DNA from: a candidate division WOR-3 bacterium
GTDB lineage: Bacteria; Hydrothermota; Tepidihabitantia; B3-TA06
Reading direction: 5' to 3'
NCBI GenBank assembly: GCA_023128825.1
Contig: JAGMDF010000082.1
Coordinates: 8,626-72,625, forward strand
DNA: 64,000 nt
Notes under the pieces: generated by a model
Told to the model about the DNA's origin: nothing
The model's database searches: none
Seen by the model: the letters and a program-made list of their open reading frames with translations, nothing else
Made by a program: the position numbers and the translations under genes
Shown here: piece by piece, positions 21,867 to 61,395 of the stretch
Position numbering within the stretch: position 1 is the stretch's first letter
How the letters are laid out: each line of letters starts with the position of its first letter

Positions 21867-21906
21867 CTGCGATCCTTTGCCCGTGGGGCAAGGAGCATTT
21901 ATTTCG
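21867..21906 (+). repeat. family-1 hairpin repeat, copy 1 (CTGCGATC-CTTTGCCC-GTG-GGGCAAGG-AGCATTTATTT), acts as terminator
   Basis: Conserved flanks CTGCGAYC / GGAGCAT with a variable complementary stem; T-rich tail; see the family-1 finding. Confidence 0.65.
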
Positions 21907-21929
21907 GAGCCATCGACTGAGGTGGATGT

Positions 21930-21957
21930 TTGACTTCCAATTGTTTCGCACTATAAT
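21930..21957 (+). promoter_or_regulatory. rpmH promoter (TTGACT-16-TATAAT)
   Basis: -35 at 21930-21935, -10 at 21952-21957. Confidence 0.6.
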
Positions 21958-21989
21958 CTTAATCGCAGTCTGGCGAAAGGAGAATGTTC

Positions 21990-22127
21990 ATGCCGAAAAG
22001 AACTTATCAACCAAGCAACCTCAAGCGTAAACGCACACATGGCTTTCGTAAACGTAACTCAACCCCTACAGGTAGAGCAATACTGAAGCGTCGCCGTGCC
22101 AAGGGGCGCAAACGCTTATCGGCATAG
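21990..22127 (+). CDS. rpmH: 50S ribosomal protein L34
   Basis: '[45 protein letters not shown]'; GGAG SD. Confidence 0.9.
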
Positions 22128-22129
22128 GG

Positions 22130-22477
22130 TTGAAGTTGAATACCGTTCGCTCTGAAAATCTGCCGCGCTCTGAGATTCTTCGTGGTGATAGAAATATAAG
22201 GGCCGTATTGGCCGCCCCGCCGGTATCCAGCGGAGCCCTCATGGCTCATTTCATTGAGGAACCACGCCGCAGGGTGGCGTTCTTTGTCCCGAGAACTATC
22301 GGAAAGGCGGTGGTTCGAAATCGTTGTAAGCGGCGCATGCGTGAAATATACAGACGAATGAAGAGAAAATTCCCGGAGGGCAAAATCATTTTCAGGTTAA
22401 AAAATGAGGTTAATCAAGTTGAGCTTGGTCGGTCCTTTTCTCTATGCGCCCAAAAACTGAGAGGCATGGGTGCGTAA
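22130..22477 (+). CDS. rnpA: ribonuclease P protein component
   Basis: '[18 protein letters not shown]' RnpA signature; TTG start directly after rpmH. Confidence 0.8.
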
Positions 22478-22676
22478 GTTATTTATCTGGATCATTCGTG
22501 CGTATCAGATCGTATTTGCAGGAGCACCGCGTAGTTGCCGCTTCGAGCCCACATGTTCGCAGTACGCGGTCGAAGCGATCGAGCGCTACGGTGTGTTGAG
22601 AGGAATTGTTAAAGCCGCCTGGAGGGTTTTGCGCTGCAATCCCTGGAATCCGGGTGGATACGATCCTGTGAGGTAA
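22470..22676 (+). CDS. yidD: membrane protein insertion efficiency factor YidD
   Basis: '[37 protein letters not shown]' YidD signature; GTG start overlaps the rnpA end. Confidence 0.85.
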
Positions 22677-22678
22677 AT

Positions 22679-24403
22679 GTGAGCGACGGACAACAGCAAA
22701 GAGGAGGTATCTGGTCAACGATCCTGGTGGTGGTGCTGGTCGCGGGAATGCTGCTTATATTTAACTTTTTAAGGAAAGACTCCGGTGGCGGATGTATGGG
22801 TGAGCCGGCAGCTGAAAAATCAACGTCTGCTGCGGTTGGGATGCCCACCAAAGAACCTACCACTGGCAGGGGATCGGAGGAGCGAGCACAGGAGGGACCT
22901 GAAGCGGATTCAATAACCCTTGAGAACGAATATCTCAAGCTCTCATTCCTGGCCTGGCCGTATCATCCCGGCTTTAGAATCACGATGGCGGAACTCAAAG
23001 ATTTCACCCGGAAGAAAGAAGCCACAAGCACTGAACGAATACCGGTCAATCTGCTTGAAGAGTCGGGTTTTGAGATTCTCGGCAAGATGGACTCAAGCCT
23101 TTCGGCCCTCAAACTCGCCGATCGCAGCGACACCTCGGTGACCTTCGTATGGGAAGATACACTGGGTGAGGAGAGATACATTGCAGTGGTTTTGACTGGT
23201 TACGAGCTGCACATTCTCCACTCCGATTCTCTTGAGCCGCTCCTTTTCCACTGCGCAGCAGGGCTTGTGCCTACCGAGCCGGGCGATAAAACTGAACTTA
23301 CCCTTTATCAGCTTTACTATCGTGACGGGGAGAAGAAGGTTCAATACCTTAACGCCAAGCGGATCGGCCAACTAAAGAAAGGCAACCGCGAGATCGAGCC
23401 CGGCCCTTACGAATGGGTGGCGCTTCGTTCCAAGTACTTTACCGCAATCATATTGCCATCAGAACCTGTGGTTGGAAAGATAATCCCCAGCGCAACCAAG
23501 AAGCAACGTATCGGTCTCTCATTCGACATTGAAGGAGGCCGCGAGTTCAGGCTTTACTTCGGTCCCCAGGATTACGAGATCCTGGCAAAGATGGGGCACA
23601 AACTGAGCCGGATTGTTGAACTGGGGGGGTCTGCATTTCGCTGGCTGGGTGTCATCATGCTCAAGATATTCCAGTTCTTTTACCGCATCATCGGCAACTA
23701 TGGAATAGCAATAATTGTATTCTCGATACTTATCAAGCTCGTCTTCCTGCCGCTTTCCCAGGTTCAGCAGCGTTCGATGCAGAAGATGCAGATGCTGCAG
23801 CCCAAGCTCAAGGAACTGCAGGAGCGCTTCAAGGACGATAAGCAACGCCTGAACGAGGAAACCATGAAGCTGTACAAACTTCATGGGGCATCACCGTTCA
23901 AGGGCTGCCTGCCCATGCTTATCCAGCTGCCTGTATTCTTCGGGCTTTACGCGGTGCTGCGCAACGCCATTAGCTTGCGCGGCGCACCGTTTGTCAAGCT
24001 GTTCACGGTAACTATTGTCAAGAACCCCGAAAAGGCCATCAACATCTTTAACTTCATTAGAATCCCCGCCGGCGAATTAACCTGGCTGGCGGATCTGTCC
24101 CAGCACGACCCATTCTACATACTCCCCATTCTCATGGGCGTAGCCTCTGTATTCCAGAGTCTGATGACCAACCCCAATCCACAGCAACGCCTGATGACCT
24201 TCATGATGCCGATTTTTATTACTGTAATCTTCCTTAACTTCCCTTCAGGATTACAGCTATACTGGTTTCTTTTCAATCTCCTCTCCATACTGGAGTTTGC
24301 GATTTTCAGGAGAGGAATGAAAGCTGGAGGAGATCAATGGCAGAGCAAGAGGCCCAAAGAGATAGCTTCGGCGAGGAGCTTGCCGAAATCCTCTCGCAGA
24401 TAG
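22679..24403 (+). CDS. yidC: membrane protein insertase YidC
   Basis: 'QMLQPKLKELQERFKDDKQRLNEETMKLYKLHGASPFKGCLPMLIQLPVFFGLY' 60-kDa inner-membrane protein core. Confidence 0.9.
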   Translation: MSDGQQQRGGIWSTILVVVLVAGMLLIFNFLRKDSGGGCMGEPAAEKSTSAAVGMPTKEPTTGRGSEERAQEGPEADSITLENEYLKLSFLAWPYHPGFRITMAELKDFTRKKEATSTERIPVNLLEESGFEILGKMDSSLSALKLADRSDTSVTFVWEDTLGEERYIAVVLTGYELHILHSDSLEPLLFHCAAGLVPTEPGDKTELTLYQLYYRDGEKKVQYLNAKRIGQLKKGNREIEPGPYEWVALRSKYFTAIILPSEPVVGKIIPSATKKQRIGLSFDIEGGREFRLYFGPQDYEILAKMGHKLSRIVELGGSAFRWLGVIMLKIFQFFYRIIGNYGIAIIVFSILIKLVFLPLSQVQQRSMQKMQMLQPKLKELQERFKDDKQRLNEETMKLYKLHGASPFKGCLPMLIQLPVFFGLYAVLRNAISLRGAPFVKLFTVTIVKNPEKAINIFNFIRIPAGELTWLADLSQHDPFYILPILMGVASVFQSLMTNPNPQQRLMTFMMPIFITVIFLNFPSGLQLYWFLFNLLSILEFAIFRRGMKAGGDQWQSKRPKEIASARSLPKSSRR

Positions 24404-24822
24404 TCTCGCTTGCCGGTTTCCGCGCGCGCATAGAATGGCGTAAGCGCGACGATAGCGAATACTACGTCAACGCCCGTACGCGACGCTGGGATGGTCTGCT
24501 CATAGGCCGGGCGGGGGAAAACCTGAGAGCGCTTCAGCTCCTGGTGCACTCGATACTGCAGCACCGTCACGCGAAGATGCCCGCTGTTATAGTTGATGTG
24601 GGTAACTACAAGCAGCGACGCGAAAACTTCCTTCGAAAGAAATCCATGGCCATAGCCAAGGTAGTAAAGGAAACAGGCCGTGAGATGATGCTTGATCCAT
24701 TGACCGACAAGGAACGCAAACTGGTGGAGCAGACCCTGGCCGGTATAGACGGTGTGCGTTCCTATACCATAGGCACCGGCTACCGAAAGAACGTAATCAT
24801 AGCACTTATTGATGTTTCTTGA
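24337..24822 (+). CDS. jag: Jag/KhpB-like RNA-binding protein (KH + R3H domains)
   Basis: Position after yidC; 'DVGNYKQRREN...' and R3H-like 'DPLTDKERKLVEQTLAGIDGVRSYTIGTGYRKNVII'. Confidence 0.7.
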   Translation: MAEQEAQRDSFGEELAEILSQIVSLAGFRARIEWRKRDDSEYYVNARTRRWDGLLIGRAGENLRALQLLVHSILQHRHAKMPAVIVDVGNYKQRRENFLRKKSMAIAKVVKETGREMMLDPLTDKERKLVEQTLAGIDGVRSYTIGTGYRKNVIIALIDVS

Positions 24823-26146
24823 ACGCCTCCAGGATGTTATAGTTGCCCCAGCTACCCCTGGTGGCCGCAGCGCTTTGGCATTAGTGCGGGTCTCAGGCCC
24901 TCAGACGTTAAGGATGTGTGATCAGGTTTTCAGGGGGCGTAAGCCTTTGAGCGGGGCACGTGGGCATCAGGTGCTCACGGGATTCATAGTCGAGGGAGAA
25001 GAGATTATAGATGAGGCCCTGGCTGCTGTTTACCGATCGCCTCACAGCTACACTACCGAGGATCTGGTCGAGTTTTCGGTTCACGGCAACCCGCTTATAG
25101 TGGATCGTGTGACCGATCTTTTGATTGGGATAGGCGCCCGTCTGGCTCGTCCCGGGGAGTTCACCGAGCGGGCTTTTCTTCACGGCAGGCTGGATGTAAC
25201 CCAGGCTGAAGCGGTGCTTGCTACAATCCAGGCCCGAACCATGAAAGGTGTCAAGGCCGCACTGGCGCAACTGCGTGGGGGTCTTACAAAGGAACTGAAG
25301 GGTCTTTCAGACCGGGTGCGCTGGCTTGTAGCCCTTATTGAAGCTCAACTTGAGTTCCCTGAAGAAGACATCCCCGAGGAATCCCTTGCACCCATGTTGG
25401 AGGGAGCTATCGCGGACACCGAGAAGTTAAGGCAGGCGTTTCGCCGCGGGCGCAGCCAGCGCAAGGGCCTGGCGGTCATGATTCTCGGACGCCCCAATGT
25501 CGGCAAATCCACCCTCTTCAATGCCCTCTTGGACGAGGAACGTTCCATCGTAACACCCGTACCTGGAACAACGAGGGATCTGGTAACCGGAATCCTGCGT
25601 TTCTCAACAGGTCAGGTTCGCCTCTTCGACGGCGCAGGAATCGGAATTGCAGAATCGCTTCCCGACCGGATCGCAGTCAGGCGGGCAGTGGGAGCGGCCA
25701 ATCGTGCGGATTTTCTTCTGGTTATGCTTGATGCAACCTCAGGATTTGTCCCGGCCGACACCGAACTCCTAAAGCTCTTGAGGGAAAAACCCGGCATGAT
25801 CGTATGGAACAAGATAGACGCCGTGAAGGAGATCCCTTCCTTAGAAAACGTCGCCGGCGAGCCTGTAGCGGTCTCGGCATTGAAGAGAAAGAATCTCTCC
25901 CCTCTCCTGGATCGGTTAAAAGAAGAAGCCTCAAGCCAGGGAGAGACGTTCTTTGCCAACCGCTTTCAGGAAGAGTGCCTGGAGCGCCTGGCCGTGCATC
26001 TGCGGGCCGCTTTGGACGCGCAGTATCTGGATATGAGGGCAAAGGAACTGCGCGAGGCCATTGCCGATTTCGCAGGAACGGGCCGCCCGGCTCTTAACCA
26101 AAGCATACTTGAAGAGATCTTTTCGCGCTTCTGCGTAGGAAAGTAG
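24809..26146 (+). CDS. mnmE: tRNA modification GTPase MnmE (TrmE)
   Basis: N-terminal 'IVAPATPGGRSALALVRVSG', G-domain 'GRPNVGKSTLFNALL', C-terminal 'CVGK' motif. Confidence 0.9.
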   Translation: MMFLERLQDVIVAPATPGGRSALALVRVSGPQTLRMCDQVFRGRKPLSGARGHQVLTGFIVEGEEIIDEALAAVYRSPHSYTTEDLVEFSVHGNPLIVDRVTDLLIGIGARLARPGEFTERAFLHGRLDVTQAEAVLATIQARTMKGVKAALAQLRGGLTKELKGLSDRVRWLVALIEAQLEFPEEDIPEESLAPMLEGAIADTEKLRQAFRRGRSQRKGLAVMILGRPNVGKSTLFNALLDEERSIVTPVPGTTRDLVTGILRFSTGQVRLFDGAGIGIAESLPDRIAVRRAVGAANRADFLLVMLDATSGFVPADTELLKLLREKPGMIVWNKIDAVKEIPSLENVAGEPVAVSALKRKNLSPLLDRLKEEASSQGETFFANRFQEECLERLAVHLRAALDAQYLDMRAKELREAIADFAGTGRPALNQSILEEIFSRFCVGK

Positions 26147-26159
26147 GAGGTTATCTAAA

Positions 26160-26564
26160 GTGTATAGACGTTTGCTTTGCTATGTCGAGGCAGGCGAAAC
26201 CCGCCTCGAAGAACTGGAGGGGGTGTTGGATCTGGCTTCCCAACTGCAAAGCCGATTAATAGTATTGGCGGTCTTGCCCGAAGAATCGCCAGATCCATCG
26301 AAGGAAGAGAAGCAAGAACGGGATATTCTCGAAGACAGAACATGGAATTTCCTCTACGAGATCGAGGACGTGGCGTTCGGAAGGGAACTTAAGATCTCAC
26401 TGATGCTCGAGGAAGGCAAACCGGAAGAAACCATCGCCTCGGTGGTCAAGAGCTACGAGGTGGACCTATGCGCCACCTTCCTTTATAAAGGACTTGATGC
26501 CGAGCTTCTTTTGCAAAAACTTGGCTCAACTCCCCTGCTTTTTTTCAACCAGGAGGGACGATGA
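26160..26564 (+). CDS. hypothetical protein (134 aa), possibly universal-stress-like alpha/beta fold
   Basis: Translationally coupled to downstream ptsN-like gene; weak 'RLIVLAVLPEE' resemblance only. Confidence 0.4.
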   Translation: MYRRLLCYVEAGETRLEELEGVLDLASQLQSRLIVLAVLPEESPDPSKEEKQERDILEDRTWNFLYEIEDVAFGRELKISLMLEEGKPEETIASVVKSYEVDLCATFLYKGLDAELLLQKLGSTPLLFFNQEGR

Positions 26565-27016
26565 TTCGTATATCAGAGGCTATCCGCGAAGAAGGGATTG
26601 TGCTTAACCTTAAGGCACAGGAAAAGGTTGCCGTAATCAAGGAACTGGTCTCGGTCATGGTAGATCTGGGGTTAATTCAGGACGAAAAAACATTCCTTGC
26701 CGACATCCTTAAGCGGGAGAACCTGGAAAGCACAGGTATTGGTCTTGGTGTAGCAATACCCCATGCCAGAACAACCGCGACCAATGAACTTCTTCTCGCC
26801 TTTGGCCGCTCCGCCAAGGGGGTTGATTTCAACTCGCTCGACGGCAAACCCTCCCACCTTATCTTCCTCATAGCTGCACCCGAGGAGAAGAAATCCCACT
26901 ACATCATGGCGCTTGCCAGGCTCTCAAAGATGCTGCACAAGGAAGAGATGCGCACCAGGTTGTCAAAAGCGGCCACTCCGGCAGAGGTCATGGAAATCTT
27001 GAAAGAAGCAGAGTAA
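26561..27016 (+). CDS. ptsN: PTS EIIA type-2 domain protein (nitrogen-regulatory IIA-Ntr / PtsN-like)
   Basis: 'TGIGLGVAIPHARTTATNELLLAFGRS...SHLIFLIAAPEE' with phospho-acceptor His in 'AIPHAR'. Confidence 0.75.
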   Translation: MIRISEAIREEGIVLNLKAQEKVAVIKELVSVMVDLGLIQDEKTFLADILKRENLESTGIGLGVAIPHARTTATNELLLAFGRSAKGVDFNSLDGKPSHLIFLIAAPEEKKSHYIMALARLSKMLHKEEMRTRLSKAATPAEVMEILKEAE

Positions 27017-27076
27017 GACAATCACAACTCACGTGCTGAAAAGGAACGGTCTCTGGTGACCGTTTCTTTTTACAGC

Positions 27077-27664
27077 TCAGGGCTGAGGGCGAACGTCAAG
27101 CAGGACGCGCTTGGCAAGGACAGCTTCGGAACCGAATATCTCCTCGGCCTTGTCGTAGAGTGAAATGAACAACTGAAGAAAATACTCGCGAATCTCTTCC
27201 GGAGCAGGGAATGGCTCTGAGATATGAGGGATGATCCCTTCCCAGCTAAGTCCAGGCAAGGCATCCTTAAGCTCGTCAGCCTCTTGCAGGATGGAATCGA
27301 TCTCGTTCTCCCAAAACTCGGCGTCATGCTCGACGTCGCTGAAAAGATCCACAAAAAGCGCCAGGCGATCCGCCTGATGCTCTACGTACCTTTGCAGACT
27401 CTCGCCGCTGTATAAAAAACCGGTCTGCACAAGCCAGGCTATGGAGTGAAGTCCGACCTCGTAGTCCAGACCCGAGGCCAGGATCGCCTCGCGAGCACTA
27501 CGTTCGCCGTCAACCGCCTCAAGGATCAGTCTATCTTGCTCACGCAGAGCCTTGGGAGTCAGCTCGGTCTCCTGGCTGCTCCTGAATAACTTGGCCTCCA
27601 GGGAGCCTATGACAGCTAAAGCTTTCCGAGCACCGAAGGTCAACCTTCGTTTATCCATCCACAA
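27077..27664 (-). CDS. hypothetical protein (195 aa)
   Basis: Overlaps the end of the yceD-like gene; no recognisable family. Confidence 0.4.
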   Translation of the reverse strand: MWMDKRRLTFGARKALAVIGSLEAKLFRSSQETELTPKALREQDRLILEAVDGERSAREAILASGLDYEVGLHSIAWLVQTGFLYSGESLQRYVEHQADRLALFVDLFSDVEHDAEFWENEIDSILQEADELKDALPGLSWEGIIPHISEPFPAPEEIREYFLQLFISLYDKAEEIFGSEAVLAKRVLLDVRPQP

Positions 27665-28169
27665 GCCTCCTTAGCTTTTCAAAAGGAGAGGGTTTTAGGC
27701 GGGTGTTGCACTTGCAACTTTCACGATTCAGATTGGCACCGCACGAGGGACAAAGCCCCCGGCAATCCTCGCGGCACAGCGCAGCAACCGGCAAGGAGAG
27801 AAGAAACGTATCCCTGACCACGTCCCTGAGATCGACCTCGCCGGTGTAAAACTCCAGATCGGTCGCCTCCGCTTCCAAGTCCTCACCTTGCCCTTTAGCT
27901 TCAGGAAGGAAGGTCACGTTCGCTGAGGTGCCTACACTGTAATCGGTCGGTTCACCGCATCTTGAGCATTCAAGTTCGATACCCGTCTTAAGATCAAGGT
28001 GCAGATCTATCCGATCGCCGGTGCGGACGAGAACAATCGAGCAGTGCAATGGCTCACGGAAGTTGTATGCATCCAGATCGAGTTCCTCTACATTCGCCTC
28101 GATCTCAAAGCGGTTGGAGCCTTCTGCAAGCTGGCTGGGCAGGAATACAAGCGAGGAGTCGCGGCTCAT
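27651..28169 (-). CDS. yceD: YceD/DUF177-family protein (large-subunit rRNA accumulation protein)
   Basis: 'CREDCRGLCPSCGANLNRESCKC' DUF177 Cys motif; ATG 28169 overlaps the upstream stop (ATGA). The longer track ORF upstream has no SD. Confidence 0.75.
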   Translation of the reverse strand: MSRDSSLVFLPSQLAEGSNRFEIEANVEELDLDAYNFREPLHCSIVLVRTGDRIDLHLDLKTGIELECSRCGEPTDYSVGTSANVTFLPEAKGQGEDLEAEATDLEFYTGEVDLRDVVRDTFLLSLPVAALCREDCRGLCPSCGANLNRESCKCNTRLKPSPFEKLRRLVDG

Positions 28170-28576
28170 GAGTCCAGAGCCTCCATCATCCCGAGTACCA
28201 AAAGCTCCCTTGCGCGCTTGAAGTGCTCGAAGCCCTCCGGGCTGGAACCGCCAAGAAGCTTCTCGTAGGAGGCTTGTCCCAGATCGGAGATTTCCTCGCG
28301 ATCCTTGCCTGCCGCAAGACGACAGAGTATATCCGCTGCCACGAACATGTGCGGGTCGCACAGCGCACACATGAACTTAAGCAGAGAAAGACGGGAATCC
28401 TTGAGCCTGCCGTAAAGGAAAACCTGATCCTTGTTCCCCTTGCGAGGACAAAGCTCTCCCTTGATTTCCACCTCCGCACCATCTATCTTCCCCATAAGAC
28501 TCTCAGCCGGATTCGAAAACAGACCCTTAAAATAACGAATGATTACAGGCTCTTCCGCCAATTCAGCCTCCTGCAA
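28166..28576 (-). CDS. Cys-containing small protein co-transcribed with cysteine desulfurase (possible sulfur carrier/scaffold)
   Basis: 136 aa; 'ELCPRK', 'FMCALCDPH', 'ILCRL' cysteines; no clean IscU/SufU/TusA signature. Confidence 0.35.
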   Translation of the reverse strand: MQEAELAEEPVIIRYFKGLFSNPAESLMGKIDGAEVEIKGELCPRKGNKDQVFLYGRLKDSRLSLLKFMCALCDPHMFVAADILCRLAAGKDREEISDLGQASYEKLLGGSSPEGFEHFKRARELLVLGMMEALDS

Positions 28577-29891: not shown

Positions 29892-29982
29892 TCCCTAATC
29901 ATAATAAAGATTAGCCGCCTGTCAATTGAGGAGACTTGACATCTTAGTGGGTTGAGTTAGGATAGAGCAAAGGAGGCGACTG

Positions 29983-32851: not shown

Positions 32852-32873
32852 CTTTTTAACGCTTCAAATCGCA

Positions 32874-34346: not shown

Positions 34347-34352
34347 AAGGTC

Positions 34353-35456: not shown

Positions 35457-35546
35457 GCTGAATCATAAATGAGATTTTCCCTATGTCAATAAGCACAACC
35501 AGAGTGCCCTCATTGACAGAAGCCAGCAAGCGAGGTATTATTTGGT

Positions 35547-37831: not shown

Positions 37832-37844
37832 GTTGGAGGTTTGT

Positions 37845-42922: not shown

Positions 42923-42971
42923 TTAAATCCTCCTTTCGTCCTGCGGACAAAAGATCGGAAAAAGATTTATT

Positions 42972-43000
42972 GAAGAGCTGGTAACGTCAGCTCTTTCGTT
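42972..43000 (+). terminator. rho-independent terminator after tRNA-Leu (GAAGAGCTG...CAGCTCTT then TCGTTTTT)
   Basis: 9-bp stem, 7-nt loop, T-run. Confidence 0.6.
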
Positions 43001-43003
43001 TTT

Positions 43004-43037
43004 CTGCGATCTTTCCTGCGTGGCAGGAAAGGAGCAT
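43004..43037 (+). repeat. family-1 hairpin repeat, copy 2 (CTGCGATC-CTTTCCTGC-GTG-GCAGGAAAG-GAGCAT)
   Basis: Perfect 9-bp stem with invariant flanks. Confidence 0.7.
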
Positions 43038-43041
43038 AAAT

Positions 43042-43413
43042 TTAGTAACCGAGGCGGCGCAGCTCGGCATCGGACAGCCCGAAGAAGTGGCCTATCTCGT
43101 GAAGAACCACACGGCGCAGGAGCGTCTTGATCTCGGAAGGTGCACTGGCGTAGCGCTCAATCAGAGATTTGTAGATAACGATCCGATCCGGCCAAAGACC
43201 GTAACCCGTTGCCCCTCTCCGACGAAGCGGAACGCCGTGGTAGAAACCCAGAACCCGACCACCCATAAACGAGGGCGGATCCGCGGCATCAGGGTAATCC
43301 TTGACCGCGATAACGATGTTGCGCTCGTCTAAAGCCTGCTTGAATTTTGCCGGCAGTCCCTCAATCGTCTCCCTCACGATCCGCTCGAACTCCTCGCGAC
43401 CAAGCTTGCTCAT
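43042..43413 (-). CDS. zincin-like metallopeptidase family protein (DUF1025-type, HEIGH motif)
   Basis: 'PDRIVIYKSLIERYASAPSEIKTLLRRVVLHEIGHFFGLSDAELRRLGY'; ATG 43413 overlaps the Xer stop (ATGA). Confidence 0.65.
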   Translation of the reverse strand: MSKLGREEFERIVRETIEGLPAKFKQALDERNIVIAVKDYPDAADPPSFMGGRVLGFYHGVPLRRRGATGYGLWPDRIVIYKSLIERYASAPSEIKTLLRRVVLHEIGHFFGLSDAELRRLGY

Positions 43414-44378
43414 GCGCGCGGGTGGAAGGTTTTGTAGACCTCGCGCAGGTAGGAACGGTCTACGTGGGTGTATATCTCGGTTGTGGAGATGTCCGCATGC
43501 CCCAGCATCTCCTGCACCGCACGCAGGTCGGCTCCGCCTTCCAGAAGATGCGTGGCAAAGGAGTGCCGGAAGGTGTGAGGGGTAACGTGGCCCTTGATGC
43601 CGGCGGCCTGGACGTAGGAATGAATGATCCTCCATGCGCCCATGCGAGAGAGCGGCCCCCCGCGAACGTTCAGGAACAAGACGTTCTTTGCCTGACCGCT
43701 TGTCCTAAGGAGGGTGGAGCGCCCCGGGACACCATCTCGGTAACGTCTCACCGCGTTTATCGCCGGTTCTCCCAGAGGAACTATTCGCTCCTTATCCCCT
43801 TTACCGATAATTCTCAAAAATTCCTCTTCCAGATATAGATCGCCCATCTTCAAGTTGATCAATTCCGATATCCTGAGGCCAGCTCCATATAGCACTTCAA
43901 GCATAGCATGATCTCGTAGGGCTAAAGCAATAGCACGTCTTATCTCTGTATCAGAACGCGGGGATTTCACCTTATCCATAGATGAGTGGGCTGCTTCCAG
44001 AACCCTCTCGACCTCCTCCACGGAAAGCACCTCGGGCAGCTTGCGAGGCAGCTTCGGTCCGGAGATATTCTCGCCAGGATCACCGGAGAGCCTGCCTGTA
44101 TCGTTGAGATAGCGCAAAAACATACGGATGGCGGAGAGTTTTCGTGCCCCCGAGCGGGGGGCAAGGCCCGCCTCGGCAAGTCTCGCAAGATAACCACGCA
44201 GTAGTCTGGAGGTCACATCCAATATCTCTTTGCCTCTCTCGCTGAGATAGGATACGAACTGATCGAGGTCACGCCCGTAAGCCTCTACCGAGTTTGCAGA
44301 AAGCCCCCGTTCTGCAACCAGGTAGTTCAAAAACTCCTCAAGCAGAGGGTCCTTTTGCTTCTCCTCAGCGTATATCAA
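43410..44378 (-). CDS. site-specific tyrosine recombinase, XerC/XerD family
   Basis: N-terminal SAM-like 'LEEFLNYLVAERGLSANSVEAYGRDLDQF'; catalytic 'HTFRHSFATHLLEGGADLRAVQEMLGHADISTTEIYTHV'. Confidence 0.9.
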   Translation of the reverse strand: MIYAEEKQKDPLLEEFLNYLVAERGLSANSVEAYGRDLDQFVSYLSERGKEILDVTSRLLRGYLARLAEAGLAPRSGARKLSAIRMFLRYLNDTGRLSGDPGENISGPKLPRKLPEVLSVEEVERVLEAAHSSMDKVKSPRSDTEIRRAIALALRDHAMLEVLYGAGLRISELINLKMGDLYLEEEFLRIIGKGDKERIVPLGEPAINAVRRYRDGVPGRSTLLRTSGQAKNVLFLNVRGGPLSRMGAWRIIHSYVQAAGIKGHVTPHTFRHSFATHLLEGGADLRAVQEMLGHADISTTEIYTHVDRSYLREVYKTFHPRA

Positions 44379-45756
44379 AGGTTTCTCCTACCTCCGGAAT
44401 CTGGACGTTCTCATAGCCCAACTCTGAAACAGCCTCGGCAAGCGCTTTAGATTGATCCTCATCGCCGTGCACAAGGAATACCTCTCTTACCTTCTTTGGG
44501 TTATAGCCGCGGAAGAAATCCAGAAGATCGTTTTTATCCGCATGTGCGGAGTACTCGTTGAGCACCTGGACCTGACAGTTTAAAGGATACTCCTCGCCGT
44601 AAAGTCTCACAACCTTGGCTCCTTCAACTATGCGCCGACCAAGGGTTCCTTGAGCCTGAAAGCCGGTGATCAAAACCAGGTTCTTCTCGTCAGGGACGAT
44701 GTTCTTTAGATGGTGGACAACACGTCCGCCTTCGCACATTCCGGAGGCGGCGATTATCATGCACGGACCCTTGACGGCGTTAAGCGCCTTAGACTCCTCA
44801 ACGGTCTTCACGTAGCGCAGGCGGAAGAAACCGAAGGGGTCTTTATCCTGCTCGAGATACTCGCGTGTCTCGGCATCAAAGCACTCAGGATGCTTGCGGA
44901 ATACCTGGGTAGCCTCAAGGGAGAGGGGGGAGTCGATCCAGATGGGCATCTGGGGCAGACGCCCCTCGTCCATAAGCTGATGCATGACGAAGACCAGAGC
45001 TTGTGTGCGTCCTACCGAGAAGGCGGGAACCAACATCTTGGCACTCCTATCGTATGCTTCTTGCAGGATCTTCTGCAGATGCTCCTTGCCTTCCTCAAGG
45101 GGAGGATGCACCCTGCCTCCGTAGGTTGATTCCGAGATGATGACGTCAGGATCAGGAATACGCTCAGGGTCACGTACCACAGGCAGATCAGGCTGCCCCA
45201 GATCGCCGGTAAAGAGTATGCGCCTGCCATCGATCTCATGGAGCACCTGGGCCGACCCCAGGATGTGCCCTGCGTCATACAGGGTAACGCTCAGCCTCCG
45301 GGCAAGCTCCTTGCGTTCATGATAGGGCAGTTTACGGAAATGCTGGGCCGCCGCCTGGGCCTCCTCTACAGTATAGAGAGGCTCTACCGCAGGCTCTCCT
45401 CGTTTTGCGTGCTTCTTGTTGACGTACTCCACGTCGCGCTCCTGAATCTCAGCCGAGTCAAGAAGAAGTATCTTGGTAAGATCAACCGTGGCAGGGGTGG
45501 CGTATATGGGTCTTGCGTAGCCTGCGGCCACGAGCCTTGGGATGTTGCCCGAATGATCGATATGGGCGTGTGAAAAAACCATAGCGTCTGCATTAAGGGC
45601 CGCCTGAGGCACTCGACTGTTGATCTCGAAGGCCTTTTTGCGATGGCCCTGGAACATTCCGAACTCGGTAAGAACTGAAGTTTTGCGCGTGTGCAGAACG
45701 AACTTGGAGCCGGTTACCGTCCTCACCGCACCGAAAAAGGTCAATTTTAAGGACAT
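44365..45756 (-). CDS. MBL-fold metallo-hydrolase of the beta-CASP family (CPSF/RNase J-like RNA-processing nuclease)
   Basis: 'SHAHIDHSGNIP' HxHxDH motif, beta-CASP and RNA-specificity segments; 463 aa. Confidence 0.75.
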   Translation of the reverse strand: MSLKLTFFGAVRTVTGSKFVLHTRKTSVLTEFGMFQGHRKKAFEINSRVPQAALNADAMVFSHAHIDHSGNIPRLVAAGYARPIYATPATVDLTKILLLDSAEIQERDVEYVNKKHAKRGEPAVEPLYTVEEAQAAAQHFRKLPYHERKELARRLSVTLYDAGHILGSAQVLHEIDGRRILFTGDLGQPDLPVVRDPERIPDPDVIISESTYGGRVHPPLEEGKEHLQKILQEAYDRSAKMLVPAFSVGRTQALVFVMHQLMDEGRLPQMPIWIDSPLSLEATQVFRKHPECFDAETREYLEQDKDPFGFFRLRYVKTVEESKALNAVKGPCMIIAASGMCEGGRVVHHLKNIVPDEKNLVLITGFQAQGTLGRRIVEGAKVVRLYGEEYPLNCQVQVLNEYSAHADKNDLLDFFRGYNPKKVREVFLVHGDEDQSKALAEAVSELGYENVQIPEVGETFDIR

Positions 45757-45830
45757 TGGCTAGTTTACAGAAAACCAGATCGGATGCAAGGTCCCCCTCC
45801 CGATAAAGATAACTGGAGCTGGCCGGTTCC

Positions 45831-46436: not shown

Positions 46437-46458
46437 TATCTCCTCCTTTGTGGATAAA

Positions 46459-46486
46459 ATTATAAATAAATTTGTGCTTGTGTCAA
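46459..46486 (-). promoter_or_regulatory. consensus promoter (TTGACA-16-TATAAT, minus strand) of the gasdermin-like gene
   Basis: rc -35 at 46481-46486, -10 at 46459-46464; a TGTGGATAA (DnaA-box-like) 9-mer at 46449-46457 lies between -10 and SD. Confidence 0.6.
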
Positions 46487-56600: not shown

Positions 56601-57349
56601 TCGTTGGCCGGAATCCAGTCCCCGCCGCAGGCGTAGCTATCCTGCTCGGAGATGATGTCTCCGTTTCCAAAGGGACCAGGGCTGACCTCAGGCATCTGTA
56701 TTGCACGGCGATACTTGTTGATCGTGGTATCCGTAAACGGCCAGAGCACCTGGTAGTCAAGAGGGGTAGTTCCGGGAGTGGCAAAGAGCCTTCCGCCTTC
56801 ACCGTCATACCCGTAGCCTTGAGGGATGGTCATATCACTGAAGTAAAGCCCGAGGTTGCTGATGTCGCGCATGCCGCCTGCGATTTTCATCTCCGGAGCG
56901 GCCATAGCTCCAATGTCCGAGTTAAAGGCACCCTTGGAGACGTTATAGACCATCTCGTCTCCAACCGGGTAGTGGCTGCCGACCCACAGACCCCACGCAT
57001 AGGTGTAGAACTGCTCTGAGCCTTTGGGATACTCGGCGTTCCTGCCTCTCGTGTTAGGATAAAGCCTGCTAGACTCTATGGGGAATTCCCCTCTGTATTC
57101 GTGTTCGTCTGCCGGGTGGCGGGCGAATGTGCCGCCCTGAAGGGTATTGCTGACCAGGAAGTCTGAGATGTTTCCTGCGTCTACCCACCATATCATCCAC
57201 CAGGAGGCCGCCTCGTTTGTCGCCACGGTCAAGAGACGGTTTTGATTTTGGGGTGCAAGCTGAACGTCGCTATCCATTCTGGCAAGAACGGGTAAAGCCA
57301 GAAACACGAGGCTCGCTAAAACAAGGATTGTTTTTCTTTTCATCGTCAT
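53666..57349 (-). CDS. very large secreted protein (1227 aa) with T9SS C-terminal sorting domain
   Basis: Signal peptide; C-terminus 'VVPNPYYV...HVIFQRLPLKCSIRIFNSAGLLIRTIEHDG...EWDLLTEAGMDCTSGLYIWQVEAETSDGKKKTKVGKFAIIR' is a canonical Por_Secre_tail. Confidence 0.75.
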   Translation of the reverse strand: MTMKRKTILVLASLVFLALPVLARMDSDVQLAPQNQNRLLTVATNEAASWWMIWWVDAGNISDFLVSNTLQGGTFARHPADEHEYRGEFPIESSRLYPNTRGRNAEYPKGSEQFYTYAWGLWVGSHYPVGDEMVYNVSKGAFNSDIGAMAAPEMKIAGGMRDISNLGLYFSDMTIPQGYGYDGEGGRLFATPGTTPLDYQVLWPFTDTTINKYRRAIQMPEVSPGPFGNGDIISEQDSYACGGDWIPANDATCIWILSTGAYDLRGQGLRIEQRTYAWNYEYNNSYIFINYKIRNMNDFPLDSVYFSFFMDNDIGEGGTSAGDDGFWDDLIGFDQELNMGYTYDANGSEEGWVTPAGYIGAVFLDTPLDIGLTGFETWPNGYEIDNLGQDSLKYAYMAHTEFWTYDKPNDVRMLMNCGPYPHLKPDEEVELTIAVIVAYSFDELKEKAKSAKIQFENGYFGYAPPPNPSLSVIPGDSVVYLTWGSESEHYIDPMSGQPTFEGYRIYKSLSGLSETWQLLGDYDLKDSKNPDTAVVEHTSGPSKASIEFLEVYYNEFTRKEPAEYGFEPNTYTLTFQQDKKDTSYKYYIVYDVATQNILTYNPDALEESGYCVLDKLNGTPKAFPAAVKAKGKVTFTPGPGDTLIPKGTIVATDADNPVFGYVEFETTQNGTIDPPGTPVDVNIEARVAGTVGNVTAGQITTIVKPVLPGVTVTNADPITGGVDGPHYYPYESGDIIFIDGGQYCISDADSGATGDILEPIHGEVFTINTYTETQLGGQVGVRHYYVDEDVRNGQIYYYSVTSYSKPQPTEGVESLEGGKTGKTYWAVSRSNPMGWQDAMVGPVIRVAGDGSALVRDSLISPDEITGHEYEVGFRAVTRIDTIIEGSDVTIDTLDIIKYAYFKDVDADSLVLDSFLTHAGELSGPIIDGVLVQVASVPIDTLDVEELIDTLYTGWLERPSKTDMYWNMDWTNAIRGRPVPYTIDYLVTVVDSAQDGKDRWGPVVVNRYDNNEPVESFLWNKDGDPNIDRLDITGNTSVSIYWEEIKPGKEVFKLSFVDTATTRRPIVDTVTNDTIGWDTTRYVIPPEPGDKFLIKTLKATSEEDRFRYTTFAARLDEDDTTQTLDDVRVVPNPYYVRAPWDRSQYDRHVIFQRLPLKCSIRIFNSAGLLIRTIEHDGEGLYGAAGSEEWDLLTEAGMDCTSGLYIWQVEAETSDGKKKTKVGKFAIIR

Positions 57350-57361
57350 TTCTCCTCTGGC

Positions 57362-60300
57362 CTAAAAGCTCACACGGATGCCGAAGCGCAGCTCACGCGG
57401 AGCACCAAACATCGCCGGACTCTGAGCGTAGTAATGCTCCCAGTCAGCAACATCGGCCTGCCAGTTTTCGTATTCGTCTGCAAAGCCGTTGCTTGCGTAG
57501 TTGCGGTAGTTGGCCTCTTCGTAGACAGGGCGTCCACCGTTGTCGTCAGGGAGACCCGTATTGCTGTAAACATTCACCACGTTACGCCAGTCAAAGATGT
57601 TGCGAACATCGAAGTACGCTCCCAGCCTGAGTCTCTCTCCCAGAGGGAACCACTTCTCCAGCTTGGCATCCAGGGTCTTGGTGCCCGGCATACGCCGGGT
57701 GCCCATGGGTATTATGTTGCCGCGGGAGTCGGTTCCCCAGTAAGGCTGCCCGGAAGCGTAGTTGAACTGAACGTTCAGATTGGTCAGTCTCAAAGCTTTG
57801 ACTGAGAAGTCCGGGGCAAGATAGAAGTTCAAGTTGGCCTTGAGCGAGTGTGTAACGTCGAACTCCAACGGGTACTCGTGCTTCGGGGGCTCAAGAGCGG
57901 TGCCGCGATAGCGGTAGTAGAACTCACGCCCTGAAGAACCGGTACCCTTGGCATCCATGAAGGAGTAGGTTATATTCCAGGAAAGAAAGCGGGCTGCCCG
58001 ACGAACCAAACCCACATCGAAACCCGTGACCTTGGCAAAATCCTCGATTACGTACACGGTGTAGGTCGAAAGTTTACCCTTGTAGATTGTGTTTACGCTA
58101 CGGGTAGCCAGAAGATTCTCCTGATCCTTGTAGTAACCCTTAAGCTCAAACGCCATGTCATTGGATATGGCGTACTTGTATCCCGCCTGGTAGAAGATCG
58201 TCTTAAGAGGCGGCAGATTGGGGTTACCCAGCAGAGGTACGCCCACGGTGATGTCGGCTTCCAGATTCTCATAAAGATCCTGCAGGTTGACCGGCTGGAA
58301 GAAGTGACCGTAGGAAGCATACATCATGGATTTTTCAGACACCGCGAAGGAGATCGAAAGACGAGGGCTGAACTGGAATTTAGGCTTTGCAACTACCTTG
58401 CCGGAGTCGATGTTCTCAGGGTCAACAAAGTAGTCGGATGCAGGATGGAAGAAATCGAAGCGAACGCCCGCGTTAAGCTCCAAATCCTCGTACTTGATCT
58501 TGTCCTGAACGTAGGCCGCAGCGATGATCGGTTCCTTGTGGTAGGTATCGTTGTAGGGGTTCTCGTTGACAAACTGGATACTCTTGTAGTCGAGGAAATG
58601 ATAGTTTCCGCTCATGCCTGCCTTGAACCAGTGGACCTCGTTGGGGTTCCAGTCGAAGGAAGCGTCAGCTATGTACTTGGTGGTGTTGCGCTCCGCCCAG
58701 TAGGGGAAGAAGTAGTAACGGAAACGACGGAACAAGGGGTCGGTGTTGTAACGAACGTAATAGAGATTCCCTGAACTCTCAAGGCTGTCCTCGTAGGGAT
58801 TATCAACGGTGGTATCCTTCCAGTTCTGCCAGAGGTCGTAGTAGTGTTTGTAGAGGTCAAAATCGAAGAGGTGGTAGTGCACGCCTACGGTGTCAATTAT
58901 TGTATCCGTTCCTTCAATCCTGGTTTCAACCGTGGGCCGCCACTCGTTGACCTCGTACCAGCGCCAGTTGAGGGACTCAAGCTGCTCCTTACAGCCTACC
59001 CATCGGAATACGCTGTCGCCGTCTATAAGGTAGCCGTTCTTTTTGACGTACTCGTTGTGGAAGAACCAGACCGCGGAGTCCGGATCCTCAGTGATGGCTG
59101 AGTAGCGCTCAAGGATGTTGAAGTAAATAGAGTCCTGGGTGTTGTTGTCAACGTAGGCAAAGGTTGACTCTGGGATATAAAAGCTCATGGAGTCCGCGTT
59201 GTAGATGCGCTGTAAGGTCGAGTCTATTATGGTGTCTCCTTCTTCGGAGATGGTGGTATCATGTTCCCACCAGGTCCGACCGTAGGCCCAGGTTACCCAA
59301 TCCATCAGCATACGACCCACCATGCGGAAATCGTTGTAATGCGCGCCGTCCATGTAGGAGGTCTTGCTATGGGTGTTGAATGTACCTACGTTGACCGTGT
59401 ACGCTATCTTGTCAATACGCTGATTGACCTTGAGATTCAACTGATAGTTGTCCTGGTTAACCATAGGTCCATTCTGTAACCAGATGCCTTTCGAGTAGGC
59501 GTGGCTGTAGCCATGACGCCAGGTGTTGGAGTAGTTGCCTGAAAGGGTAAACTTAGCTCCACCCTCTGTCGGTCGCCAGGCAAGCTTAAGCGTTCCGTTC
59601 TTGCGGTGCTGATCGTTGAATGGGAGTCTGTTTTCGTGTTCGAGGATGTTCCCGGAGATGAAGAAGGAGGAACGCGGCAGACCCAGCGGCCCGCCAAAGG
59701 ACAAGGATCCCTTGTTATGCCACATATCCTTGTTCGGATATTTGATCGGATCCTTACTCAGCCTCAGGTGAGCGTCGGTTTCATACTCGGCTGTGCCCTC
59801 GAATCTCTGGCTACTGCCTTCACGGGTGACGATGTTGACCACCGCGGACATCGCATCGCCGTACTCGGCATTGAAGGTGCCGGTGTTAATGGTTATCTCC
59901 TGAATAGCCGTGTTGTCTATGTAGACGCCCGATTGACCGGTCACTGGATCGTTGGCGTTGATACCGTCAACCACGTAGACCACCTCGTTGGTTCGGCCGC
60001 CCTGGATGTGCAGACCTGACGAGTAGCCACTCGCAGTCTCGGTAGCTCCAGCTACAAGCCTTACAACGTCCTGGTAGTTATCCACCGGCATACGTATGAT
60101 CTCCCCACGCTCTATGGGATGTGGCTCCGTTGTGAGAAGCGGGCGGGTGGCCGTAATTATTTGCACCGGCATATCGATGCTTCCGGGCTTTAACCTTGCA
60201 TCCTGTTTGGTAACCTGGTCGGCCGTAACCTTGACACCGCTCACCACAACAACCTGGTAGCCAATCATCGAGAACTCAAGGGTGTATTCGCCGGCACGAA

Positions 60301-60514
60301 GGTTAGAGATCACGTAGGTTCCATCCATGCCGGTTGCAGCACCAGTGACGGACTCACCATTCTGTCGCACGATGACGTTTACAGAGGGCAGTGGATCTCC
60401 TGTTCCGGCGTCTCTTACCCGCCCGGTGATCTTCCCCATGATACCGGCCATTAAAAGACCTGGAATGAGAAGTAACACCATGGCGAGAAAGACGCCCCTT
60501 ACTTTTACTCTCAC
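57362..60514 (-). CDS. TonB-dependent outer-membrane receptor, SusC/RagA-like (N-terminal CarboxypepD_reg domain + plug + 22-strand barrel)
   Basis: 'GKITGRVRDAGTGDPLPSVNVIV...GTYVISNLRAGEYTLEFSMIGY' CarbopepD_reg; plug 'YVVDGINANDP'; C-terminal 'RELRFGIRVSF'. Confidence 0.75.
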   Translation of the reverse strand: MRVKVRGVFLAMVLLLIPGLLMAGIMGKITGRVRDAGTGDPLPSVNVIVRQNGESVTGAATGMDGTYVISNLRAGEYTLEFSMIGYQVVVVSGVKVTADQVTKQDARLKPGSIDMPVQIITATRPLLTTEPHPIERGEIIRMPVDNYQDVVRLVAGATETASGYSSGLHIQGGRTNEVVYVVDGINANDPVTGQSGVYIDNTAIQEITINTGTFNAEYGDAMSAVVNIVTREGSSQRFEGTAEYETDAHLRLSKDPIKYPNKDMWHNKGSLSFGGPLGLPRSSFFISGNILEHENRLPFNDQHRKNGTLKLAWRPTEGGAKFTLSGNYSNTWRHGYSHAYSKGIWLQNGPMVNQDNYQLNLKVNQRIDKIAYTVNVGTFNTHSKTSYMDGAHYNDFRMVGRMLMDWVTWAYGRTWWEHDTTISEEGDTIIDSTLQRIYNADSMSFYIPESTFAYVDNNTQDSIYFNILERYSAITEDPDSAVWFFHNEYVKKNGYLIDGDSVFRWVGCKEQLESLNWRWYEVNEWRPTVETRIEGTDTIIDTVGVHYHLFDFDLYKHYYDLWQNWKDTTVDNPYEDSLESSGNLYYVRYNTDPLFRRFRYYFFPYWAERNTTKYIADASFDWNPNEVHWFKAGMSGNYHFLDYKSIQFVNENPYNDTYHKEPIIAAAYVQDKIKYEDLELNAGVRFDFFHPASDYFVDPENIDSGKVVAKPKFQFSPRLSISFAVSEKSMMYASYGHFFQPVNLQDLYENLEADITVGVPLLGNPNLPPLKTIFYQAGYKYAISNDMAFELKGYYKDQENLLATRSVNTIYKGKLSTYTVYVIEDFAKVTGFDVGLVRRAARFLSWNITYSFMDAKGTGSSGREFYYRYRGTALEPPKHEYPLEFDVTHSLKANLNFYLAPDFSVKALRLTNLNVQFNYASGQPYWGTDSRGNIIPMGTRRMPGTKTLDAKLEKWFPLGERLRLGAYFDVRNIFDWRNVVNVYSNTGLPDDNGGRPVYEEANYRNYASNGFADEYENWQADVADWEHYYAQSPAMFGAPRELRFGIRVSF

Positions 60515-60850
60515 GTTAAACCTCCTAGCTCTAGCTGGATGGGTTTTTCAACATAACTCTATGTGAACTGGGGTCGGAATACTCCGATTACAAAGAATTG
60601 ACGCACCTCCTTTTCTTTCGTGGGAATTCACACTTTGACATTCACTCATAATAACCGTCCGTTTTTGCAGGCCGCCCTAGAAAGCCCAACATTAACTCAT
60701 CTGCTCAAGAGGGTTACACGGGGAGACAATCCAACTCCTTCGTGTATACCTTCGTATTTGAGTATAGGTTTCTTTCCTGACTTGTCAAGTGGTAGGAAAT
60801 CTGTGCGCCAGGAGATCATTGCCAGGGGGTGGGCCTACATTTAACAAACC

Positions 60851-60883
60851 GTGTGGAACGGGCTCTCTAGCCCGTTCTTTTAT
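60851..60883 (+). repeat. repeat A, copy 1: GTGTGGAACGGGCTCTCTAGCCCGTTCTTTTAT (9-bp stem, CTCT loop, U-run; terminator-like)
   Basis: Identical 33-mer at 61441..61473; followed by conserved ATTATGCACAGGCTGGAG. Confidence 0.7.
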
Positions 60884-60960
60884 ATTATGCACAGGCTGGA
60901 GCACCCGACGGGGGTACACTGGTATGGAGTGCGACAACGCGGTTGTCGCACTCCAAAGTT

Positions 60961-60997
60961 ATATGCTCCTTTTTACCTGGCGGTAAAAAGATCGCAG
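60961..60997 (-). repeat. family-1 hairpin repeat, copy 4 (inverted orientation: ATATGCTC-CTTTTTACC-TGGC-GGTAAAAAG-ATCGCAG)
   Basis: rc gives CTGCGAT...GAGCAT flanks; perfect 9-bp stem. Confidence 0.7.
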
Positions 60998-61012
60998 TAT
61001 AGAACTGTCCTA

Positions 61013-61052
61013 GGGGTCCCCGCGGCGTTACGAAGTAACGGCGTGGGGTAAA
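61013..61052 (+). repeat. family-2 structured repeat, copy 3 (GGGGTCCCCGCG-GCGTTAC-GAAG-GTAACGGC-GTGGGGTAAAG)
   Basis: Same conserved ends and GAAG loop as the 10479..10566 units, with a different complementary inner stem. Confidence 0.65.
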
Positions 61053-61359
61053 GTTACACCTCCCCCTTGACGGGGGAGAGTAGGGAGGGGGATTGTCATT
61101 GCGAGCGAACGAAGTGAGCGAAGCAATCTCGTAAAGATGACAAAGGCGTCTCAGTCATTATGAGGAGCGAGTGTTCGTGACGAGCGACATGACACCGAAG
61201 GACGACGCTTGCGGAGTAATCTCATTCTGCAAGGCGGTGCTATGAGATCGCCACACTTCCCCGCCTCTTACGAGGCGGACGGTCGGTCGCGATGACATTT
61301 AATCTTCCCCTCCCCTGGTGGGAGGGGTCGGAGACGAAGTCGACGGGGGAAGGGGAAAC

Positions 61360-61395
61360 ATATGCTCCTTTTCGCCTGTGGCGAAAAGATCGCAG
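61360..61395 (-). repeat. family-1 hairpin repeat, copy 5 (inverted orientation: ATATGCTC-CTTTTCGCC-TGT-GGCGAAAAG-ATCGCAG)
   Basis: Stem differs from copy 4 by compensatory TA>CG changes in both arms. Confidence 0.7.

Follow-up and report, generated by a model that had tools for sequence, protein, structure and literature searches.

Family-1, an abundant structured repeat of WOR-3/Stahlbacteria genomes with a constant hairpin base and a variable stem

Repetitive extragenic palindromes (REP), bacterial interspersed mosaic elements (BIME) and the systems of REP doublets forming hairpins with their REP-associated tyrosine transposases (REPIN-RAYT) of Proteobacteria are short, extragenic imperfect palindromes present in hundreds of copies (PMC3116915, PMC3337134). 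Here, we describe family-1, a hairpin repeat in a 64,000-nucleotide stretch of DNA from a candidate division WOR-3 bacterium (contig JAGMDF010000082.1, positions 8,626 to 72,625; this whole stretch is called the window), and find it to be a genuine, abundant structured repeat specific to WOR-3/Stahlbacteria. Like REP and BIME, family-1 is a short extragenic imperfect palindrome of high copy number that is concentrated at the 3' ends of genes and in convergent intergenic regions, forms inverted doublets and mosaic clusters with other motifs, and is gained and lost between related genomes. It differs from them in how it is built. There is no 5' GTAG/GTGG, as the 5' end reads CTGCGAT and the reverse strand starts with ATGCTCC. 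The stem of a REP is conserved sequence, whereas family-1 conserves the hairpin base and flanks and has a different stem in nearly every copy. The arms of a REPIN are near-identical REPs, whereas in a family-1 doublet neither partner is a copy of the other. A tblastn search over 540 kb, which is a weak test, gave no RAYT, and the literature searched contains no such system in WOR-3. The original prediction had compared the hairpins to REP/BIME elements; the extragenic location, 3'-end bias, mosaics, inverted pairs and polymorphism agree with that comparison, while the GTAG/GTGG head and a shared stem are missing. Family-1 is REP/BIME-like in distribution, clustering, pairing and turnover and inverse in design (constant base, free stem), and strict REP membership fails on the GTAG head and the conserved stem.

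The window contains nine family-1 copies of 33 to 55 bases each, with near-invariant ends and a middle that varies yet always pairs. Five of these had been listed in the original prediction, and all five were located with the positions and sequences given there. A strict pattern matched 4 times in the window versus 0 times in 100 shuffles, and the 3' block AAGGAGCAT is present 8 times where 0.53 occurrences are expected. We also scanned for the motif in one genome per species. Among the matches listed, about 70 of 100 loci came from seven metagenome-assembled genomes (MAGs) labelled candidate division WOR-3 or Candidatus Stahlbacteria; the 72 pattern matches able to fold were all in WOR-3/Stahlbacteria MAGs or the window, and the 42 poorly folding ones comprised every one of the 34 single matches from other taxa and a further eight, weaker copies from WOR-3. 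With a covariance model, 112 copies were identified in a motif-enriched sample of WOR-3/Stahlbacteria MAG sequence (481 kb). The frequency of family-1 is about one copy per 7 kb, its copies are essentially all intergenic, and its core measures 32 to 38 nt. The flanks are kept in approximately 110 further copies from at least seven species-level MAGs, so the claims that the family exceeds chance and that its flanks recur elsewhere both held. Stretches of the window are 80 to 96% identical to contigs of WOR-3/Stahlbacteria MAGs, which places it in a genome of the Stahlbacteria type. In IMG/VR, a single contig carried one copy, within a mosaic repeat context like that of the MAG copies, which indicates that the element is not phage-borne. 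At the gathering threshold of Rfam 15, three tRNAs alone passed and no family matched the element, and E-value scans of two element-rich regions returned chance hairpin matches alone, far below threshold. A search of the Stahlbacteria literature gave no report on repeats.

Read 5' to 3', the element opens with a pyrimidine-rich lead-in. The outer helix UGC/GCA follows, then the 2x1 internal loop (GA/A) and the conserved U·G pair; these lead into the inner helix C-UUUU-NNNN, which usually closes in a C(GNA)G triloop, and the A/U-rich tail T-W-A-W-T comes last. In the inner helix, C-UUUU-N4-5 is paired to N4-5-AAAA-G; the stem is usually 9 to 10 bp long, most often with a triloop, and its top 4 to 5 bp vary freely provided that pairing holds. 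Across 110 distinct sequences, 96.3% of cells pair, and double-change cells number 181 versus 47.9 in shuffles (0/500); in a set of 61 sequences, the corresponding values are 94.9% and 102 versus 27.7 (0/500). All slid pairing registers collapse in the 110-copy set. The compensatory variation of the inner stem noted in the original prediction is therefore well supported. The flanks, which it had described as invariant, are near-invariant and not simply single-stranded but largely paired: U2-G3-C4 forms a 3-bp outer helix with the G-C-A of GAGCAU, and T7 pairs with the first G of GGAG (U·G in 100 of 110 copies, C-G in 7). The outer helix has also changed on both sides at once, to UCC/GGA in the window copy at 42927, in L100:1081 and in L062:4899 (L numbers denote sampled loci) and to CGC/GCG in the window copy at 52383 and in L016:4349.

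The fold belongs to the strand carrying CTGCGAT...GGAGCAT, as judged from four features. In 88 of 101 copies the forward RNA gives a stabler fold than the reverse one (mean difference 2.4 kcal/mol), GNA triloops (26/59) outnumber those of the complementary type TNC (about 6), the 5' arm is pyrimidine-rich, and T·G (U·G) pairs exceed A·C (13 versus 8). Outside the helices, a pyrimidine-rich run of about 7 nt extends on the 5' side and the A/T-rich T-W-A-W-T tail on the 3' side, both with only moderate conservation. Several other readings of the conserved blocks were rejected. Inspection of the consensus in both orientations showed that the internal loop GA/A (or GAU/GA) has C,U where a k-turn needs G,A, and its sequence does not fit a loop-E motif either. 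The two blocks cannot be the -35 and -10 boxes of a promoter, or a sigma54 promoter, as their spacing ranges from 9 to 17 nt with stem length. A small open reading frame (ORF) on the reverse strand, with ATG directly after a stop codon, has neither conserved frames nor conserved lengths.

The covariance model recovered eight window copies and, weakly, a long variant. Four of the nine (700-754, 14584-14618, 42927-42959 and 52383-52415) add to the earlier five; those at 42927-42959(-) and 52383-52415(-) are diverged minus-strand copies detected by the model. The copies, a terminator hairpin lying between two of them and one doubtful relative are as follows.

700..754, minus strand: family-1 long-insert variant, CTGCGATC-TCTTAACCTATCGGTTCACAAGTGTCTCCGCATGAGA-AAAGGAGCAT, insert 21 nt longer
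8322..8355, plus strand: doubtful degenerate relative (GATC, 7-bp hairpin, AGAGCAT, then TTTTT)
14584..14618, plus strand: family-1 copy, CTGCAATC variant, 45.5 bits
21867..21898, plus strand: family-1 copy with CCTTT/AAGG base, 43.9 bits
42927..42959, minus strand: family-1 copy, TCCGATC...GGAGGAT, compensated outer helix UCC/GGA, 32.9 bits, fold z=-4.25
42972..43003, no strand: hairpin GAAGAGCTGgtaacgtCAGCTCTT of a bidirectional terminator, flanked by a T-run (plus strand) and, on its opposite side, by an A/T-rich run
43004..43037, plus strand: family-1 copy, 57.8 bits, fold z=-3.86
52383..52415, minus strand: family-1 copy, TCGCGATC...GGAGCGT, compensated outer helix CGC/GCG, 29 bits, fold z=-3.71
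52538..52571, plus strand: family-1 copy, CTGCGACC, C-G in place of U·G, 56.5 bits
60963..60997, minus strand: family-1 copy, 56.6 bits, in a mosaic repeat cluster upstream of a TonB-receptor-like gene
61362..61395, minus strand: family-1 copy, 58.6 bits, in the same mosaic cluster as 60963-60997

The long variant at 700-754 is a weak match to the model (9.2 bits, E=2.6) and folds no better than shuffles; a related long variant, L090:4080-4132, scores 37.8 bits. The copy at 21867 is not bulged, as had been thought, but has CCTTT/AAGG in place of CTTTT/AAAAG. The sequence at 8322-8355, previously counted as a degenerate copy, gave no model match at E<=10 and a fold z-score of only -1.2.

The element favors gene 3' ends, and its orientation relative to transcription is not fixed. 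With genes called by a crude ORF heuristic, 78 copies were classified: 24 lie between convergent genes, 21 between tandem genes and pointing along them ('++'), 24 between tandem genes and pointing opposite ('--'), and 9 between divergent genes ('-+'). The near-equal split of the tandem contexts (21 along, 24 opposite) speaks against the terminator orientation proposed in the original prediction, and both orientations are interleaved along the window, so that a replication-strand bias was set aside. The genes beside the elements are ordinary housekeeping genes, and the U-richness of the tail is equal across context classes.

Relative to its own two ends, the element is polar in the genome: the tail faces the next unit, and the 5' side is turned toward the incoming transcription unit. 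Between the tail and the stop codon of an opposite-strand gene, the distance is -1 to +4 nt in 21 of 110 copies, and the tail likewise lies 4 nt from tRNA 3' ends. Of 107 copies, 19 have a co-oriented sigma70 promoter (TTGACN-15..18-TAnnnT) in the next 120 nt downstream (background 3%), and in 11 of those 19 the -35 box starts 6 to 10 nt after the tail. The 5' side almost never abuts anything, with the nearest gene end typically 35 to 130 nt away, and at least 20 of 108 copies have a separate canonical hairpin with a T-run on that side, versus 6 in a mirrored control. Neighboring copies are arranged head-to-head in 12 cases, tail-to-tail in 2 and in tandem in 3, often with a doublet spacing of 43 to 53 nt, and the stems of the two partners are unrelated. 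Head-to-head pairs bracket a bidirectional terminator.

The window illustrates these arrangements. At 42927/43004, the head-to-head pair encloses the hairpin at 42972-42996; the tail of the left partner (42927-42959) is 4 nt from the 3' end of a tRNA-Leu, and that of 43004-43037 is 4 nt from the stop codon of a convergent zincin-like gene (43042-43635, minus strand). In the pair 52383/52538, the left partner (52383-52415) has a family-2 hairpin (described below) next after it, while the 52538-52571 copy is preceded by a GC-rich hairpin at 52501-52530 and has its tail 2 nt from the stop codon of a gene at 52574-53656(-). The 14584-14618 copy is located between a gene resembling iron-containing alcohol dehydrogenase (Fe-ADH) and a fructose-1,6-bisphosphatase (FBPase) gene, and a promoter (TTGACA...TAATAT, 14646-14673) begins 27 nt downstream of it. 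Downstream of 21867-21898, a promoter (TTGACT...TATAAT, 21930-21959) begins after 31 nt. Past the 700-754(-) variant, TTGACG-16-TATACT lies 7 nt further on, followed by ATG 6 nt past the -10.

Two side observations concern these surroundings. The bracketed terminators in the spacers of L005, L096, L046, L001 and L053 often share a GGCCAGCC-loop-GGCTGGCC stem, and the doublet with its terminator, approximately 115 nt in all, may itself be a repeated module. Strong TTGACA/TAnnnT promoters with an ATG only 5 to 7 nt past the -10 occur at window positions 656-692(-) and downstream of elements in L082, L010, L006 and L093. This short distance in several promoters suggests that leaderless mRNAs are frequent in the lineage.

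We tentatively favor the view that family-1 acts as a polar transcription barrier or 3'-end-forming hairpin. Polymerases that have passed the primary terminator, or that come from the antisense direction, would transcribe the element, and it would be read in the nascent RNA. Its constant hairpin base (outer helix, GA/A loop and U·G) would then be recognized by a conserved host factor, and the element would serve as a last-line polar barrier or 3'-end-forming hairpin insulating the downstream unit. We prefer this reading because it accounts for the forward-strand fold with its conserved U·G pair, for the tail abutting a stop codon, a tRNA end or a -35 box, and for the inward-pointing copies on either side of a bidirectional terminator. 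A constant base combined with a free stem points to a trans-acting factor that recognizes the hairpin base and is conserved across the lineage.

Hairpins with conserved sequence at gene ends are familiar from other bacteria. The inverted pairs of the Neisseria DNA uptake sequence (DUS) and the Haemophilus uptake signal sequence (USS) and the mycobacterial tuberculosis rho-independent terminators (TRIT) are sequence-conserved terminator families. They share with family-1 repeated, sequence-conserved hairpins downstream of genes; their conserved sequence forms the stem, whereas the family-1 stem is the variable part, and family-1 has no U-tract and lies in many copies beyond a separate terminator. 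It is distinctly unlikely that family-1 copies are ordinary intrinsic terminators which share sequence through descent from one duplicated terminator. Such an origin would fit the bias to gene 3' ends and convergent regions, the stable hairpin (about -14 kcal/mol), the U and A/U-rich tail that follow it and the 52538 copy, which passes a terminator scan. However, the tail is T-W-A-W-T and not a U-tract (the canonical terminators of these loci carry 5 to 7 U), and in a scan for a hairpin with a T-run, 52538 is the only one of eight scanned window copies to pass. Many copies sit just beyond a canonical terminator, and 33 of 78 (42%) are without a co-oriented upstream gene. The flanks are invariant while the stems drift, the reverse of ordinary terminator behavior. 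We therefore rejected the intrinsic terminator class, which the original prediction had deduced from U-runs behind the plus-oriented copies.

The reverse strand deserves separate consideration, as it starts 0 to 4 nt past a stop codon in 21 of 110 copies and carries the octamer UGCUCCUU by the hairpin, in the manner of the BoxA/boxB (nut) sites. This octamer agrees with the E. coli rrn BoxA at five leading bases. It equals the Aquifex aeolicus BoxA GGCUCCUU at seven of eight positions (PMC3177189). The reverse strand could then be a functional element of the 3' untranslated region, with UGCUCCUU as a BoxA-like NusB/NusE site by a boxB-like hairpin or as an anti-Shine-Dalgarno mimic, but we regard this as very unlikely. 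The octamer is buried in two covariation-supported helices; here a C·A mismatch takes the place of the conserved U·G, 88 of 101 copies fold less stably than on the other strand, and the loops favor that other strand. The promoter-hugging copies and the 21 '++' copies, which have no gene in the reverse direction, would be left unexplained. Known BoxA sites are few per genome and located at operon 5' ends, whereas family-1 occurs in hundreds of copies at gene 3' ends. The resemblance to BoxA is probably coincidental, since the octamer is base-paired in the supported structure.

A site acting at the DNA level, either an attC-type recombination site or a promoter-upstream site (UP-like or activator-binding), is extremely unlikely. 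The likeness to attC, raised in the original prediction, lies in a hairpin with a conserved base and variable center that is recognized as a folded single strand, and in 11 promoters the dyad center is near -60, as might suit an upstream site. However, attC sites are 55 to 140 nt long, with complementary R''/R' and L''/L' boxes (GTTRRRY core) and extrahelical bases, and they bound gene cassettes beside an integrase. Family-1 is 33 to 38 nt and has no complementary R/L boxes, and neither extrahelical bases nor bounded cassettes are seen. No recombinase or integrase was present among the 20 window proteins scanned, in line with the original prediction. The spacing and sequence of the arms vary, which excludes a dimeric site in double-stranded DNA, and most copies are away from promoters.

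Comparison of related genomes revealed both persistence and turnover. Genomes of about 80% identity have retained copies at orthologous sites, and these copies have changed less than the terminator lying between them; positions were stable in 7 of 8 comparisons with the window. The copies at 42927 and 43004 have orthologues at L100:1081 and L100:1159, the latter with one compensatory C-G to U-A change, the 52383 copy has one at L016:4349, and the 14584-14618 copy has orthologues in L098 and L032. Between the 21867 copy and its orthologue in L069, the intergenic DNA is unalignable and the element flanks and downstream promoter alone are conserved; the inner stem has diverged with its pairing kept. 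(Just upstream of the copy in L069, the reverse strand has a tandem repeat, cacccgtaa x4, where the window has unrelated sequence.) Copies are also gained and lost together with mosaic clusters of other hairpin repeats, and at three orthologous sites a whole element-bearing cluster is present in one genome and absent from the other (L100:6092 versus window 47.7 kb, L020:1526 versus L012, and L090:4080 versus L061).

This turnover brings in the main rival, a selfish or domesticated REP/REPIN-like DNA element, which we consider possible but doubtful. In such a scheme, the forward hairpin would form in single-stranded DNA (ssDNA), its base would be recognized by a nuclease or transposase (RAYT-like HUH or other) encoded elsewhere, and the enzyme would place copies of the hairpin beside AT-rich TWA sites at the ends of genes, with any terminator or insulator effect being secondary. 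In addition to the presence/absence of whole clusters, it would explain the insertion in L090, where the element directly joins the TAA stop of a gene whose last two codons are not those of the empty allele. Identical stems recur in non-orthologous contexts and species (TTTTGCCCGTAGGGCAAAA in L034/L046 and L041; CTCGCTTGCGAG in L036, L006 and L035), and MAG contigs end inside element clusters. C(GNA)G triloops, the usual family-1 loops, are classic extra-stable mini-hairpin loops in DNA. The orientation is independent of the direction of transcription, the flanking consensus is only moderately conserved, as for a target preference, and the head-to-head doublets with a spacing of about 45 nt recall REPINs (PMC3116915). 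A selfish element explains the turnover and the independence of orientation equally well as a polar barrier does.

Other observations are at odds with a selfish origin. The GTAG/GTGG head is missing, and tblastn with IS200 TnpA gave no Y1 transposase match in 540 kb, although this test was weak. Actively spreading REPINs cluster around a master sequence, whereas about 80 different stems occur among 101 distinct family-1 copies, and doublet partners have unrelated stems. The flanks have remained near-invariant across at least seven species despite the drift of the stems, which implies constraint on every copy. Most orthologous positions are stable, and no target-site duplications were evident at solo copies or doublets.

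The clusters in which copies come and go are long, non-coding mosaics combining family-1 with other repeats (window 60515-61580, L004 4200-5500, L100 6000-6230, and L020). The partners are GGGGTCCCC hairpins, CCTCCCCC...GGGGGAGG hairpins, GTCATTGCGAG...GCAATC units, CCTCCCCCTTGAnGGGGGAGG hairpins and GTAGGGGCCGAC...GTCGGCCC hairpins, and one 34-nt hairpin unit of the window cluster occurs twice in identical form (60850-60883 and 61440-61473). Two clusters of one MAG, around L033 5568-5602 and L091 5550-5583, are about 98% identical for more than 200 nt on each side, yet the family-1 stem-loop has been wholly replaced (ACCGCCAGGT versus TGCGAAGCA), and there is a 21-nt insertion at the tip of a neighboring family-2 hairpin. 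Hairpin tips look like hotspots of change, and the replaced stem-loop could reflect an enzyme-mediated exchange of hairpin 'cassettes' between copies.

Family-2, often found directly downstream of a family-1 copy, has the form GGGGTCCCC(G/A)C - variable stem - G(Y)GGGG(T) and follows the same principle, with a constant base, a variable and covarying stem and a conserved G·T wobble. GGGGTCCCC occurs 5 times in the window against 0.9 expected (10479-10487, 10524-10532, 47477-47485[-], 52368-52376[-] and 61013-61021) and in many loci, e.g., L004 4268-4305. A different repeat, the palindrome GTAGGGGTACGGCATGCCGTGCCCCTA, is present as two identical copies (17460-17486 and 19968-19994) that bound a 2.5-kb segment with a radical-SAM gene and a TetR gene. 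In L032, a syntenic contig, the segment is missing and the palindrome is single; this looks like a repeat-mediated deletion or insertion.

Several points weigh against a polar transcription barrier. Action at the RNA level is inferred. The outer helix has support that is real but thin, from few independent events, and four copies carry an uncompensated change. The tail is not a U-tract, an internal loop near the hairpin base weakens intrinsic termination, and a single window copy of the eight scanned looks like a terminator. Since the 33 copies in '--' (24) and '-+' (9) contexts have no forward-transcribed gene upstream, a barrier would have to act there on putative antisense or read-through transcription; the gene calls in the loci are crude. 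In L066 and L037, copies lie directly before a start codon with no promoter between. A selfish mobile element would account at least equally well for the presence/absence polymorphism and for the identical stems found in unrelated contexts, and the polar adjacency could be an insertion preference for an AT-rich TWA target and not a function.

In the stronger form of the barrier model, which we judge rather unlikely, the hairpin base would dock a dedicated Stahlbacteria protein, making the element a factor-dependent, strictly polar barrier, with genes fenced on either side by inward-pointing copies. Two other features of the window should be mentioned. At 44365-45756(-), it encodes a 463-amino-acid beta-CASP/RMMBL metallo-beta-lactamase ribonuclease (CPSF/RNase J-like), which could conceivably process 3' ends, although nothing ties this ribonuclease to the repeat. 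At 52574-57349(-), a 1,227-amino-acid protein with a Baseplate_J-like domain lies beside a 360-amino-acid protein without a Pfam match, and this region may belong to a locus of the phage-tail-like or contractile-injection kind.

Hardly any members of WOR-3/Stahlbacteria have been cultured, and we know of nothing on how their transcription units are delimited. As a counterexample to the REP paradigm, in which it is the stem that is conserved and not the hairpin base, family-1 bears on how such repeats are recognized and maintained. Its clusters break MAG assemblies and appear to mediate rearrangements, and the repeat could be used for annotating operon boundaries in MAGs and for assigning contigs to the lineage. 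With an occurrence of about once per 7 kb, a consistent polarity toward promoters and gene ends and a protein-like recognition surface, it could lead to a lineage-specific RNA- or ssDNA-binding factor. If the docking of a dedicated protein is true, these bacteria would possess a system of insulators, encoded in sequence throughout the genome, that is separate from both intrinsic and Rho termination.

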